DNA of 64,000 nt, from NCBI RefSeq assembly GCF_003334255.1, contig NZ_QOWU01000004.1. One strand, 5' to 3'. Both the position numbers and the translations under genes were made by a program. The stretch's first letter is position 1, and every line of letters begins with the position of its first letter. Shown one piece after another: positions 10,172 through 15,635 of the stretch. The notes under the pieces were generated by a model that did not search any database, was not told where the DNA came from, and saw only the letters and a program-made list of their open reading frames with translations. The stretch is from Escherichia coli. Its GTDB lineage: Bacteria; Pseudomonadota; Gammaproteobacteria; Enterobacterales; Enterobacteriaceae.

Positions 10172-12085
10172 ATGATTGTTTTCTCCTCGTTACAAATTCG
10201 TCGCGGCGTGCGCGTCCTGCTGGATAATGCCACCGCCACCATCAACCCTGGGCAGAAAGTCGGCCTGGTGGGTAAAAACGGCTGTGGTAAATCTACCCTG
10301 CTGGCATTGCTGAAAAATGAAATCAGCGCCGACGGCGGCAGCTACACCTTTCCGGGAAGCTGGCAACTGGCGTGGGTGAATCAGGAAACGCCGGCGTTAC
10401 CGCAAGCGGCGCTGGAATATGTCATTGACGGCGACCGTGAATATCGTCAACTAGAAGCGCAGCTACACGACGCCAACGAACGTAACGACGGGCACGCCAT
10501 TGCGACCATTCATGGCAAGCTGGATGCTATTGACGCATGGAGTATTCGCTCCCGTGCTGCCAGCCTGCTGCACGGCCTCGGTTTCAGCAATGAACAACTG
10601 GAGCGCCCGGTAAGTGATTTTTCCGGGGGCTGGCGTATGCGTCTTAACCTTGCCCAGGCGCTGATTTGCCGTTCAGACTTGCTGCTGCTCGACGAACCGA
10701 CTAACCACCTCGATCTCGATGCCGTTATCTGGCTGGAAAAATGGCTGAAGAGCTATCAGGGCACGCTGATCCTGATCTCTCACGACCGCGACTTCCTCGA
10801 TCCGATCGTCGATAAAATTATTCATATCGAACAACAAAGCATGTTCGAGTACACCGGCAACTACAGTTCGTTTGAAGTACAGCGCGCCACCCGTCTGGCG
10901 CAGCAACAAGCGATGTACGAAAGCCAGCAGGAACGCGTAGCGCATCTGCAAAGTTATATCGACCGTTTCCGTGCCAAAGCCACCAAAGCGAAGCAGGCCC
11001 AGAGCCGCATTAAGATGCTCGAGCGTATGGAGCTAATTGCCCCCGCGCACGTCGACAACCCGTTCCGCTTTAGCTTCCGCGCGCCGGAAAGCCTGCCAAA
11101 TCCGTTACTGAAGATGGAAAAAGTCAGCGCGGGCTATGGCGATCGCATTATTCTCGACTCGATTAAACTGAACCTGGTGCCCGGCTCGCGTATTGGTCTG
11201 TTAGGCCGCAATGGCGCGGGTAAATCGACATTAATCAAACTGTTAGCCGGTGAACTTGCGCCAGTCAGCGGTGAAATTGGTCTGGCGAAAGGGATCAAAC
11301 TCGGCTACTTCGCCCAGCATCAACTTGAATACCTGCGCGCCGACGAATCACCTATTCAACATCTGGCACGTTTAGCGCCGCAGGAGCTGGAACAAAAACT
11401 GCGTGACTACCTCGGCGGCTTTGGTTTCCAGGGCGATAAAGTAACCGAAGAAACGCGCCGCTTCTCCGGTGGGGAAAAAGCCCGCCTGGTGCTGGCATTA
11501 ATTGTCTGGCAGCGGCCGAATCTGCTGCTGCTCGACGAACCGACTAACCACCTTGACCTCGACATGCGTCAGGCACTCACCGAAGCATTAATCGAGTTTG
11601 AAGGCGCGCTGGTTGTCGTTTCGCACGACCGTCATTTGCTGCGTTCCACCACTGACGATCTCTACCTGGTTCACGATCGTAAAGTCGAACCGTTCGACGG
11701 CGATCTGGAAGATTATCAACAGTGGTTGAGCGACGTACAAAAGCAGGAAAACCAGACCGACGAAGCGCCAAAAGAGAATGCGAACAGCGCCCAGGCACGT
11801 AAAGATCAGAAGCGTCGGGAAGCTGAGCTGCGTGCGCAAACCCAGCCACTGCGTAAAGAGATTGCCCGTCTGGAAAAAGAGATGGAGAAGCTGAACGCGC
11901 AACTGGCGCAGGCGGAAGAGAAACTCGGCGACAGCGAACTGTATGACCAGAGCCGTAAAGCGGAGTTGACCGCCTGCCTGCAACAGCAAGCCAGCGCCAA
12001 ATCCGGCCTGGAAGAGTGCGAAATGGCATGGCTGGAAGCCCAGGAGCAGCTTGAGCAGATGCTGCTGGAAGGCCAAAGCAACTGA
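10172..12085 (+). CDS. yheS: ABC-F family ATPase YheS (two ABC cassettes, no TM domain; 637 aa)
   Basis: ORF track; Walker A motifs GKNGCGKST and GRNGAGKST, two LSGG-type signatures, charged coiled-coil C-terminus. Confidence 0.93.
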   Translation: MIVFSSLQIRRGVRVLLDNATATINPGQKVGLVGKNGCGKSTLLALLKNEISADGGSYTFPGSWQLAWVNQETPALPQAALEYVIDGDREYRQLEAQLHDANERNDGHAIATIHGKLDAIDAWSIRSRAASLLHGLGFSNEQLERPVSDFSGGWRMRLNLAQALICRSDLLLLDEPTNHLDLDAVIWLEKWLKSYQGTLILISHDRDFLDPIVDKIIHIEQQSMFEYTGNYSSFEVQRATRLAQQQAMYESQQERVAHLQSYIDRFRAKATKAKQAQSRIKMLERMELIAPAHVDNPFRFSFRAPESLPNPLLKMEKVSAGYGDRIILDSIKLNLVPGSRIGLLGRNGAGKSTLIKLLAGELAPVSGEIGLAKGIKLGYFAQHQLEYLRADESPIQHLARLAPQELEQKLRDYLGGFGFQGDKVTEETRRFSGGEKARLVLALIVWQRPNLLLLDEPTNHLDLDMRQALTEALIEFEGALVVVSHDRHLLRSTTDDLYLVHDRKVEPFDGDLEDYQQWLSDVQKQENQTDEAPKENANSAQARKDQKRREAELRAQTQPLRKEIARLEKEMEKLNAQLAQAEEKLGDSELYDQSRKAELTACLQQQASAKSGLEECEMAWLEAQEQLEQMLLEGQSN

Positions 12086-13107
12086 TGGCGCAGATAACGA
12101 CGACCGATGCCAATGAATTCAGCAGCAGTGCTGAATTCATCCCCATGCGCGGCTTTAGCAATTGTCATCTGCAAACCATGCTGCCGCGTCTGTTTCGTCG
12201 TCAGGTGAAATTCACCCCGTACTGGCAGCGGCTGGAGTTGCCCGACGGCGATTTTGTCGATCTTGCGTGGAGTGAAAACCCTGCACAGGCGCAACATAAA
12301 CCTCGTCTGGTGGTGTTTCACGGGCTGGAAGGCAGTCTCAACAGCCCTTACGCCCACGGTCTGGTTGAGGCGGCGCAAAAGCGCGGCTGGCTGGGCGTGG
12401 TGATGCATTTTCGCGGATGCAGCGGTGAACCAAACCGTATGCACCGCATTTACCATTCGGGCGAAACCGAAGACGCCAGTTGGTTTTTACGCTGGCTGCA
12501 ACGCGAATTTGGTCATGCGCCAACGGCTGCCGTCGGCTATTCGCTCGGCGGTAATATGCTGGCCTGTTTGCTGGCAAAGGAAGGCAATGATCTCCCGGTT
12601 GATGCGGCGGTGATTGTCTCTGCGCCGTTTATGCTGGAAGCCTGTAGCTATCATATGGAAAAGGGCTTTTCCCGCGTTTATCAGCGTTACTTGCTGAACC
12701 TGTTAAAAGCCAATGCCGCGCGCAAGCTGGCAGCCTACCCCGGAACGCTGCCGATTAATCTCGCGCAGTTAAAATCGGTACGTCGCATCCGTGAATTTGA
12801 CGATCTCATCACCGCCAGAATTCACGGCTACGCCGACGCTATCGACTATTATCGTCAGTGTAGCGCCATGCCGATGCTGAACCGGATCGCCAAACCGACG
12901 CTGATTATTCACGCCAAAGACGATCCGTTTATGGATCATCAGGTGATCCCGAAACCGGAAAGTCTCCCCCCGCAGGTGGAGTATCAACTGACTGAACATG
13001 GCGGTCATGTTGGCTTTATTGGCGGTACATTACTTCATCCGCAAATGTGGCTGGAGTCACGCATTCCTGACTGGTTAACAACGTATCTGGAGGCGAAATC
13101 ATGTTGA
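12085..13107 (+). CDS. yheT: Alpha/beta-hydrolase fold protein YheT (340 aa)
   Basis: ORF track; nucleophile elbow GYSLGG (GxSxG); start overlaps yheS stop. Confidence 0.9.
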
Positions 13108-13319
13108 TTCCGTGGCAAGACCTCTCCCCCGAAACGCTGGAAAATTTAATTGAAAGCTTTGTGTTACGTGAAGGCACCGATTATGGTGAACATGAGCGTA
13201 CACTTGAACAGAAAGTCGCCGACGTCAAACGCCAGCTACAGTGCGGAGAAGCGGTGCTGGTATGGTCGGAGCTGCACGAAACGGTCAATATTATGCCGCG
13301 CAGTCAGTTTCGCGAATAA
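13101..13319 (+). CDS. yheU: Small conserved protein YheU (72 aa, UPF0270-type)
   Basis: ORF track; [29 protein letters not shown]...; overlaps yheT end by 7 nt. Confidence 0.85.
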
Positions 13320-13372
13320 CCTGCAACCGTCGGCGGACGAGATAATAATGATAGCTAAGTCATGGAGTTACT

Positions 13373-14242
13373 ATGTCTGCCAAACATCCGGTCATTGCGG
13401 TAACAGGATCCAGCGGCGCGGGGACCACCACCACCAGCCTCGCGTTTCGTAAAATATTCGCGCAGTTAAATCTGCATGCAGCTGAGGTGGAAGGCGACAG
13501 TTTTCACCGTTACACCCGCCCGGAAATGGACATGGCGATCCGCAAAGCGCGCGACGCCGGGCGGCATATCAGCTACTTCGGCCCCGAGGCTAACGACTTC
13601 GGCCTGCTGGAACAAACCTTCATTGAATACGGTCAGAGCGGCAAAGGGAAATCTCGCAAATATCTGCATACCTACGACGAAGCCGTACCGTGGAATCAGG
13701 TACCGGGGACATTCACCCCCTGGCAACCTTTACCGGAACCCACTGATGTACTGTTTTATGAAGGTTTACACGGCGGCGTAGTCACGCCACAGCATAACGT
13801 TGCGCAGCATGTGGACTTACTGGTCGGCGTGGTGCCTATCGTTAACCTTGAGTGGATTCAAAAACTGATCCGCGACACCAGCGAGCGCGGGCACTCACGA
13901 GAAGCAGTGATGGACTCAGTAGTGCGTTCAATGGAAGACTATATCAACTACATCACACCGCAGTTTTCCCGCACCCATCTTAACTTCCAGCGCGTTCCCA
14001 CCGTCGACACTTCAAACCCGTTCGCGGCAAAAGGTATCCCGTCGCTCGATGAAAGCTTTGTGGTGATCCATTTTCGTAATCTGGAAGGGATCGATTTCCC
14101 CTGGCTGCTGGCGATGTTGCAAGGCTCATTCATTTCCCACATCAATACGTTAGTGGTACCGGGCGGCAAAATGGGTCTGGCAATGGAATTAATTATGCTG
14201 CCGCTGGTGCAACGATTGATGGAAGGAAAGAAAATCGAGTAA
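13373..14242 (+). CDS. prkB: Phosphoribulokinase-homologue PrkB (P-loop kinase, 289 aa)
   Basis: ORF track; N-terminal P-loop VIAVTGSSGAGTTTTS typical of PRK/uridine kinase family. Confidence 0.9.
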   Translation: MSAKHPVIAVTGSSGAGTTTTSLAFRKIFAQLNLHAAEVEGDSFHRYTRPEMDMAIRKARDAGRHISYFGPEANDFGLLEQTFIEYGQSGKGKSRKYLHTYDEAVPWNQVPGTFTPWQPLPEPTDVLFYEGLHGGVVTPQHNVAQHVDLLVGVVPIVNLEWIQKLIRDTSERGHSREAVMDSVVRSMEDYINYITPQFSRTHLNFQRVPTVDTSNPFAAKGIPSLDESFVVIHFRNLEGIDFPWLLAMLQGSFISHINTLVVPGGKMGLAMELIMLPLVQRLMEGKKIE

Positions 14243-14254
14243 CTCTGCTATTAC

Positions 14255-14276
14255 GCCGGATAAAATACTATCCGGC
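14255..14276. terminator. Hairpin between convergent prkB and yhfA (candidate bidirectional terminator)
   Basis: Inverted repeat gccggata-aaatac-tatccggc. Confidence 0.5.
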
Positions 14277-14296: not shown

Positions 14297-14701
14297 TCAC
14301 GCGGCAACCACTTCATACGAGTGAGTAATATTCACCGCTTTTTCCAGCATCAACGCCACTGAACAATATTTCTCGGCAGAGAGATCAACCGCACGCGCAA
14401 CCGCTGCGTCTTTCAGGTCGCGACCGGTGACGATAAAATGCAGATTAATGTGCGTAAACAGGCGTGGTGCCTCTTCGCGGCGTTCAGAGGTCAATTTTAC
14501 TTCACAATCGACCACATCCTGACGCCCTTTTTGCAGGATCGAAACCACATCGATGGCACTGCAACCACCCGCCGCCATCAACACCATTTCCATCGGACTT
14601 GGTGCTTTATCGCCTGAGTTGCCGTCCATTAAAATCTGATGACCAGAGGCGGATTCGCCCAGAAAAGTTAACCCTTCGACCCACTTCACTCGCGCTTGCA
14701 T
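14297..14701 (-). CDS. yhfA: OsmC/Ohr-family protein YhfA (134 aa)
   Basis: ORF track; MQARVKWVEGLTFLGESASGHQILMDG... with paired Cys (GGCSAID ... KYCSV). Confidence 0.9.
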   Translation of the reverse strand: MQARVKWVEGLTFLGESASGHQILMDGNSGDKAPSPMEMVLMAAGGCSAIDVVSILQKGRQDVVDCEVKLTSERREEAPRLFTHINLHFIVTGRDLKDAAVARAVDLSAEKYCSVALMLEKAVNITHSYEVVAA

Positions 14702-15002: not shown

Positions 15003-15635
15003 ATGGTGCTTGGCAAACCGCAAACAGACCCGACTCTCGAATGGTTCTTGTCTCATTGCCACATTCATAAGTACCCATCCAAGAGCACGCTTATTCACCA
15101 GGGTGAAAAAGCGGAAACGCTGTACTACATCGTTAAAGGCTCTGTGGCAGTGCTGATCAAAGACGAAGAGGGTAAAGAAATGATCCTCTCCTATCTGAAT
15201 CAGGGTGATTTTATTGGCGAACTGGGCCTGTTTGAAGAGGGCCAGGAACGTAGCGCATGGGTACGTGCGAAAACCGCCTGTGAAGTGGCTGAAATTTCGT
15301 ACAAAAAATTTCGCCAATTGATTCAGGTAAACCCGGACATTCTGATGCGTTTGTCTGCACAGATGGCGCGTCGTCTGCAAGTCACTTCAGAGAAAGTGGG
15401 CAACCTGGCGTTCCTCGACGTGACGGGCCGCATTGCACAGACTCTGCTGAATCTGGCAAAACAACCAGACGCTATGACTCACCCGGACGGTATGCAAATC
15501 AAAATTACCCGTCAGGAAATTGGTCAGATTGTCGGCTGTTCTCGTGAAACCGTGGGACGCATTCTGAAGATGCTGGAAGATCAGAACCTGATCTCCGCAC
15601 ACGGTAAAACCATCGTCGTTTACGGCACTCGTTAA
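15003..15635 (+). CDS. crp: cAMP receptor protein CRP (210 aa)
   Basis: ORF track; [50 protein letters not shown]...; C-terminal [23 protein letters not shown]. Confidence 0.98.

Follow-up and report, generated by a model that had tools for sequence, protein, structure and literature searches.

Why should Escherichia coli carry a gene for phosphoribulokinase (PRK), a Calvin-cycle enzyme, outside any Calvin cycle? The question is raised by prkB, which lies at positions 13,373 to 14,242 (+) of a 64,000-nucleotide stretch of E. coli DNA (contig NZ_QOWU01000004.1 of assembly GCF_003334255.1; the whole stretch is referred to here as the window). Neither the gene nor its puzzle is a discovery: the annotation is decades old, the 1.8-kb prkB region is 100% identical to that of E. 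coli K-12 MG1655, and RefSeq names the gene in that strain prkB, phosphoribulokinase. A first-pass annotation of the window, made from the sequence alone, had described a P-loop kinase of the PRK/uridine kinase family whose substrate was unclear from its context. From the analysis below, PrkB is probably a catalytically competent class I kinase of D-ribulose 5-phosphate (Ru5P), with diverged regulation and a role other than the Calvin cycle.

Family assignment and active site of PrkB

The open reading frame (ORF) is uninterrupted over 289 codons, from an ATG at 13373 to a TAA at 14240-14242, and residues 9-22 of the product (AVTGSSGAGTTTTS) contain the N-terminal P-loop that the first-pass annotation had pointed out. 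The features on which the argument rests are as follows.

13373..14242 (+): prkB coding sequence, 289 aa, class I phosphoribulokinase homologue (ORF call, identity with MG1655, and matches to PF00485, NF011997 and 1A7J)
13406..13429 (+): codons of the atypical P-loop G12-S-S-G-A-G-T18-T19, with Thr for the Walker-A Lys (alignments with the Rhodobacter sphaeroides PRK)
13850..13930 (+): codons of the mobile lid, residues 160-186, with invariant K164, R167, D168 and R172 and clade-specific H174, S182 and S186

A Pfam search returned PF00485 (PRK/uridine kinase; E = 1.6e-76) as the single domain of PrkB. On the NCBIfam equivalog NF011997 ("phosphoribulokinase," EC 2.7.1.19; model length 290 positions), PrkB scored 524.7 bits over residues 1-288 against a cut-off of 362, compared to 505.7 bits for CbbP of Cupriavidus necator and 486.5 for the R. 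sphaeroides PRK, both characterised enzymes; by this criterion, PrkB is not distinguishable from bona fide PRKs. The best match among solved structures was the R. sphaeroides PRK (1A7J; E = 8e-94, residues 1-288 against 1-289), with class II and archaeal PRK structures ranking behind it at E values of ~1e-9 to 1e-4. The two proteins are 50% identical over a global alignment with a single one-residue gap, and their collinearity extends through the C-terminal oligomerisation domain; this domain of PrkB (residues ~215-289) aligns with class I PRKs only. PrkB is 50-61% identical to PRKs encoded in cbb operons, biochemically characterised ones included. The family character recognised at first pass was thus confirmed by all three matches, and phylogenetic placement, which had been proposed there as a check, put PrkB firmly within the class I PRKs and in no different kinase family.

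Because PF00485 is shared with uridine kinases, prkB could in principle be a misannotated uridine or cytidine kinase, or another member of the family, and the uridine kinase (udk) models NF004018 and TIGR00235 do give weak matches. Their scores of 27.5 and 22.7 bits are, however, far under the respective cut-offs of 180 and 220.3, and the C-terminal domain finds its counterpart in class I PRKs alone, which leaves this explanation with a negligible probability. Assignment to the class II PRKs was rejected likewise, as model NF005655 gave 49.1 bits against a cut-off of 236.

The residues known to matter in PRKs were compared across 81 sequences from heterotrophs, which form a clade described below and include E. 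coli PrkB, and 12 sequences from Calvin-cycle (cbb) operons. D42, H45, R49, Y97, H99, E130, K164, R167, D168, and R172 are invariant throughout both sets, as are G12, S14, G15, G17, and T18 of the P-loop (E. coli numbering; Y97/H99/E130/K164/R167/D168/R172 are Y98/H100/E131/K165/R168/D169/R173 in R. sphaeroides, while D42, H45, and R49 have the same number in both). Thr18 occupies the position of the Walker-A lysine. Since the active R. sphaeroides PRK has a threonine there as well, this is a class I trait and no sign of inactivity. In the R. sphaeroides enzyme, mutagenesis and structural studies summarised by Kono et al. (PMC5241800) assign His45 and Lys165 to the binding of Ru5P and Arg168 to that of ATP, and the Arg/Tyr/His of the substrate-phosphate site are conserved across all PRKs (PMC5241800).

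Because all known Ru5P-binding residues are invariant, the sequence points strongly to Ru5P as the substrate of PrkB. The earlier view that the substrate was unclear from context is upheld with a qualification: the context indeed supplies none, but the sequence strongly suggests one, and it is the role of the enzyme that is less clear than its chemistry. By homology to the R. sphaeroides enzyme, PrkB would most probably catalyse the reaction ATP + D-ribulose-5-phosphate -> ADP + ribulose-1,5-bisphosphate (RuBP). ATP would be held by the atypical P-loop (G12-T19) together with R167, and Mg2+ by the Walker B residue E130; R49, Y97, and H99 would bind the 5-phosphate of Ru5P, with H45, K164, and R172 positioning the sugar; and D42 and D168 would mediate phosphoryl transfer to the C1 hydroxyl.

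A prkB clade in bacteria without a Calvin cycle

With ten C. necator cbb-operon proteins as tblastn queries, no match to the RuBP carboxylase/oxygenase (RuBisCO) subunits CbbL or CbbS was found in the window, and a form I cbbL gene had no match at the DNA level (blastn) in 20,395 E. coli records. The absence of RuBisCO genes near prkB, remarked on at first pass, therefore holds for the window and, for form I RuBisCO at the DNA level, for the E. coli records.

A tblastn search of PLSDB separated the relatives of PrkB into two groups, with at least 80% identity in Enterobacterales and 77% in Aeromonas, and then nothing until 61% or less (Acidovorax, 61%; Paraburkholderia, 59.7%; C. necator pHG1, 58.7%; Sinorhizobium, 53%; Cereibacter, 50%). 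All eight loci sampled at or below 61% identity are cbb clusters. A class 1 fructose-bisphosphatase (FBPase) gene directly precedes the PRK gene in at least seven of them, and most also carry genes for transketolase, RuBisCO, CbbX, and a LysR/CbbR regulator. Class I PRKs are all ~50% or more identical to one another, and a search of representatives clustered at 50% identity gave mostly fragments that contributed little to the phylogeny. We also noted that four PLSDB "plasmids" of 4-5 Mb (NZ_CP141089.1, NZ_CP134663.1, NZ_OL790811.1, and NZ_AP026896.1) are evidently chromosomes of E. coli, Proteus mirabilis, and Aeromonas caviae; a mislabelled chromosome of this kind is the source of the Aeromonas prkB locus.

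For the genomic context of the close relatives, we took the best 80 loci from a scan for the motifs NLEWIQK and LFYEGLHG in one genome per GTDB species. All 80 are from heterotrophic Gammaproteobacteria, with identities to E. coli PrkB of 80-99% in Enterobacterales, 73-77% in Aeromonadales, 72-75% in Vibrionales, and 68-73% in Alteromonadales (among others, Idiomarina, Colwellia, Pseudoalteromonas, Rheinheimera, and Thalassotalea). Within 8 kb of the gene, cbbL, cbbS, cbbX, fbp, and tkt are absent from all 80 loci. The order yheS-yheT-yheU-prkB, followed by yhfA and crp, is kept through Enterobacterales, Aeromonadales, and Vibrionales, and in these three orders yheU and prkB are on the same strand in 55 of 56 loci, with median gaps of 64, 69, and 108 nucleotides. 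In Alteromonadales, the linkage to yheT and yheU has been lost, and either yhfA and argD stay nearby or prkB follows genes that, judged by their sizes, look ribosomal.

In a neighbour-joining tree, the 81 heterotroph sequences formed one clade that branched by the four orders, was recovered in 100 of 100 bootstrap replicates, and was separated from the cbb-type PRKs by a long stem branch. This pattern fits vertical inheritance of PrkB from a common ancestor of the four orders. The cbb-type sample was alpha- and betaproteobacterial and plasmid-borne, and because it held no PRKs of gammaproteobacterial autotrophs, an autotrophic gammaproteobacterial ancestry of the clade cannot be inferred from this tree.

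The gene is kept under strong purifying selection. The ratio of nonsynonymous to synonymous substitution rates (dN/dS) of prkB between E. coli and its relatives was 0.010 for E. albertii, 0.020 for Citrobacter, 0.036 for Enterobacter, and 0.021 for Pluralibacter, and that of argD was higher in every one of the same comparisons (0.030-0.069). The median identity to the E. coli protein was 90, 76, 74, and 72% across the four orders, so that among ten neighbouring genes CRP alone is more conserved than PrkB; 107 of the 289 positions are invariant within the clade, and the prkB region was matched in 5,426 of 5,426 complete E. coli genomes at no less than 95% identity in each. A gene so maintained without RuBisCO is not a stray Calvin-cycle gene.

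Two further homologues of cbb-operon genes lie in the window, ~29 kb from prkB: gph (42514-43272, -), whose product is 34% identical to C. necator CbbZ, and rpe (43265-43942, -), whose product is 63% identical to CbbE. We take this pair to belong to the dam-rpe-gph-trpS block of the E. coli map. Three cbb-operon homologues (prk, rpe, and gph) are thus found within 30 kb in a genome without RuBisCO, and their proximity could be either what is left of a Calvin-cycle cluster in an ancestor or a chance outcome of synteny in this region. Together with the absence of RuBisCO, it might even suggest that prkB is a decaying, functionless leftover of such a cluster. The strength of purifying selection excludes decay, with dN/dS values of 0.01-0.04, presence in every complete E. 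coli genome, the second-highest conservation in the neighbourhood, and more than a third of positions fixed; we hold this explanation to be very improbable. An origin of prkB as a relic is possible, while loss of its function is effectively excluded.

Putative effector-site arginines and the role of PrkB

The cbb-type set has 104 invariant columns, 79 of which are kept in the heterotroph clade. Among the 11 cbb-invariant arginines, six are kept (R. sphaeroides numbering; R49, R96, R168, R173, and R208 in 81 of 81 sequences and R186 in 79 of 81). The other five, R31, R187, R221, R234, and R257, are arginine in 12 of 12 cbb-type sequences and are not kept in the clade: R31 is replaced by Gln, Met, Thr, or Ser, R187 by Ser in 81 of 81 sequences, and R221 mostly by Lys, with Arg or His at the position of R234 and Arg, His, Asn, or Gln at that of R257. 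E. coli PrkB has lost all five (Q31, S186, K220, H233, and H256). Further fixed differences between the two sets are Y68 (H69 in the cbb-type enzymes), H174 (Y175), S182 (T/V183), and E272 (Q273). In all, the heterotroph clade has become fixed for a different residue at seven positions, of which H174, S182, and S186 belong to the lid.

In cbb-type PRKs, R221, R234, and R257, with R30/R31 of the neighbouring subunit, are said to form the site for the effectors NADH and AMP, and R187, in the mobile lid, reportedly affects ATP binding. This list of effector and lid arginines coincides exactly with those cbb-invariant arginines that are not kept among the heterotrophs, and the fit suggests that the catalytic core has been preserved and the autotroph-style redox/energy switch has not. 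Given the loss of the five arginines, PrkB is predicted not to be activated by NADH.

The same remodelling of the former effector site could mean instead that PrkB is mainly non-catalytic, a regulatory or scaffolding protein with incidental kinase activity, by analogy with the PRK-CP12-GAPDH complexes of phototrophs. Such a function would agree with the conserved linkage to yheS (which encodes an ABCF translation factor), yheT, and yheU, with the synteny with crp, and with the lack of a metabolic partner among the neighbours. Against it, all 81 sequences share the full catalytic set, down to the general-base Asp and the Walker B Glu, which is hard to account for unless catalysis is under selection, and the Alteromonadales proteins are still ~70% identical to that of E. 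coli although the yheT/yheU linkage has been lost there. We therefore regard a mainly non-catalytic PrkB as quite improbable.

Several points weigh against the reading that we favour, namely a competent Ru5P kinase with diverged regulation. The allosteric assignment of R31, R221, R234, and R257 and the ATP-binding assignment of R187 are taken here as an assumption. Four of the fixed substitutions, Y68 (H69), H174 (Y175), S182, and S186 (R187), lie in or near the lid and the active-site region, and could alter the specificity for the nucleotide or the sugar. No conserved sugar-phosphate enzyme was present among the ORFs within 6 kb of prkB in the 80 loci, and a literature search turned up no study of E. 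coli PrkB by biochemistry or genetics, nor any published assay of its Ru5P-dependent formation of RuBP. Finally, the engineering literature regards PRK and RuBisCO as non-native to E. coli, calls PRK toxic, and describes RuBP as being without further metabolism in this host (PMC7463662); if RuBP is indeed both toxic and unusable, substantial native synthesis would be wasteful or harmful. The tension is real: RuBP is reportedly both poisonous and useless to E. coli, yet an enzyme that apparently forms it is conserved more tightly than ArgD.

One way to relieve this tension, and the main rival reading, would be a neo-functionalised kinase that has kept the fold and the phosphoryl transfer and acts on a different sugar phosphate or polyol phosphate, such as xylulose-5-P or sedoheptulose-7-P, with RuBP at most a side product. 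The long, fully supported stem branch and the seven clade-fixed substitutions, three of them in the lid that closes over the substrates, are consistent with such a change, as are the lack of a known RuBP consumer in E. coli, the reported toxicity of RuBP (PMC7463662), and the strong purifying selection, which implies a useful product. A change of substrate usually alters some of the contact residues, however, and here all known Ru5P-contact and catalytic residues are invariant in both clades; moreover, NF011997 scores PrkB above both characterised PRKs, and no neighbouring gene suggests an alternative pathway. A new substrate is in our view unlikely, though it deserves serious consideration, and the sequence evidence still favours a Ru5P kinase with a non-Calvin role.

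The product of the PrkB clade, RuBP or a close sugar bisphosphate, might serve E. coli, Vibrio, and related bacteria as a native metabolite of functional importance that is consumed or sensed by a partner, a proposal that we put forward only tentatively and with some doubt. Were it true, heterotrophic Gammaproteobacteria would make a conserved, non-Calvin use of phosphoribulokinase, under an effector control unlike the NADH/AMP switch of autotrophs. Should PrkB make RuBP, models of enteric central metabolism would be short of one reaction and one consumer, strains engineered for CO2 fixation would harbour an unacknowledged native PRK, and the view of RuBP as a foreign, toxic dead end would need revision. 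Among E. coli genes without a demonstrated function, prkB is one of the better conserved, and it has the complete catalytic equipment of an enzyme of the Calvin cycle whose product is reportedly of no use to E. coli. The clade boundary, the lost arginines, the strength of selection, and the yheU-prkB linkage sharpen the question without answering it.

Locus, homologues and comparison with known systems

The local gene order is kefB-kefG (-), yheS-yheT-yheU-prkB (+), yhfA (-), crp-yhfK (+), and argD (-), so that prkB follows yheS-yheT-yheU and converges on yhfA, just as the first-pass annotation had placed it. The remaining features of the locus are as follows.

10172..13319 (+): yheS-yheT-yheU, same-strand upstream genes, with a 53-nucleotide gap to prkB
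13364..13367 (+): ribosome-binding site GGAG, 5 nucleotides 5' of the ATG, read from the sequence
14255..14276 (no strand assigned): hairpin GCCGGATA-aaatac-TATCCGGC between the convergent prkB and yhfA, -17.5 kcal/mol, z = -2.9
14297..14701 (-): yhfA (OsmC family), convergent neighbour, syntenic with prkB in 51 of 80 related loci
15003..15635 (+): crp, syntenic neighbour across Enterobacterales, Aeromonadales, and Vibrionales

A sequence scan of the 53-nucleotide yheU-prkB gap found neither a terminator-like nor a sigma-70-like promoter site, and prkB is probably co-transcribed with yheS-yheT-yheU by read-through. A preprint on ABCF proteins regards all four genes as co-cistronic (bioRxiv 10.1101/2023.06.11.543863). 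The candidate for a promoter of prkB itself, one weak sigma-70-like site at 13075-13102 (+) inside the 3' end of yheT, was rejected, as the number of hits was not above that in shuffled controls. Sequence evidence for a possible control of prkB by CRP was likewise rejected, as no box conserved among the 80 loci precedes the gene. The lone CRP-like box (TGTGGCTGGAGTCACG, 13046-13061, +; two mismatches) lies inside yheT, 319 nucleotides upstream of prkB, is present in Escherichia only, and is probably due to chance. At the other end of the gene, the hairpin at 14255-14276 is a probable transcript-end structure; it has no clear U-tract and was not picked out by the terminator scan.

When the ORFs within 6 kb of prkB were clustered across the 80 loci, the only recurrent neighbours were argD, yheT, crp, yhfA, yheS, pabA, and kefG/kefB, which reflects regional synteny. 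The most faithful of them is yheU (13101-13319, +), which encodes a 72-aa UPF0270 protein and in E. coli overlaps the end of yheT by 7 nucleotides. YheU matched a single structure, that of PA3463 (PDB 1Y0N), a protein of no assigned function, and YheT had no match in the structure search. Neighbours specific to Alteromonadales, named by eye, resemble purD, speD, rlmJ, yjjX, a HAD hydrolase gene, apbE, and the rpoA-rplQ operon. In five loci from Thalassotalea, an Alteromonadaceae metagenome-assembled genome, and Colwellia (L062, L070, L073, L075, and L076), prkB comes directly after a same-strand run of genes that, by gene sizes, looks like the secY...rpoA-rplQ cluster.

Several other homologues deserve mention. 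Two deep-branching groups of class I PRK homologues, P0126 (loci L093-L095) and P0133 (L096-L097), are ~50% identical to PrkB and have no cbb neighbours; orphan PRKs therefore extend beyond the enteric/Vibrio clade. One of these, from ocean metagenomes, adjoins a class I tRNA-synthetase gene and lptE on two contigs and genes for a UvrD-type helicase and DNA polymerase I on another, and the second lineage is flanked by genes for a YkuD-domain protein and a pseudouridine synthase. Another homologue (P0129, L092) adjoins a RuBisCO large-subunit gene with no small-subunit gene, a LysR regulator being two genes off. The 312-aa homologue P0132 (45% identity to PrkB), with its degenerate P-loop (GASDHSTT) and changes at several catalytic positions, may represent a pseudokinase lineage. 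Lastly, in the 377-aa P0001, E. coli PrkB is fused to a chloroplast transit peptide of the plant RbcS type in which the motif GGRVNCMQ is duplicated; the PrkB part is unchanged outside junction residues 1-2. P0001 is clearly a synthetic construct, probably a patent sequence, and as no natural fusion it is uninformative on activity.

Putative PRKs in heterotrophs have already been noted in print (Gurrieri et al., bioRxiv 10.1101/422709), and PrkB can be set beside four known systems. With uridine kinase Udk, it shares PF00485 and the N-terminal P-loop kinase core, but Udk has no equivalent of the class I C-terminal domain. The class II PRKs of cyanobacteria, algae, and plants (such as 6H7G, 6GVE, and 6KEV) and the archaeal PRK (5B3F) belong to the same Pfam family as PrkB and agree with it in the fold of the kinase core and in the residues for Ru5P and ATP. 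The similarity is remote (E ~1e-5), and the class II enzymes form dimers, have a canonical GK(S/T) P-loop, and are under redox/CP12 control. The PRKs of C. necator H16 (CbbP, on pHG1), Acidovorax, Azoarcus, and Paraburkholderia belong to the same NCBIfam equivalog and are 58.7-61% identical to PrkB over their full length, the highest identity found outside the heterotroph clade. Their genes lie between those for class 1 FBPase and transketolase, beside RuBisCO and cbbX, whereas prkB lies between yheU and yhfA/crp. The R. sphaeroides PRK (CbbP/PrkA, 1A7J), a class I octamer that NADH activates and AMP inhibits, is encoded in a cbb operon, unlike prkB, whose host is without RuBisCO. The two proteins (289 and 290 aa) nonetheless align over their full length and have the same atypical P-loop, GSSGAGT(S/T), and the same catalytic and substrate residues. 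What sets E. coli PrkB apart from R. sphaeroides PRK and the other cbb-type enzymes is the presence of Q31, S186, K220, H233, and H256 in place of their invariant Arg31, Arg187, Arg221, Arg234, and Arg257.

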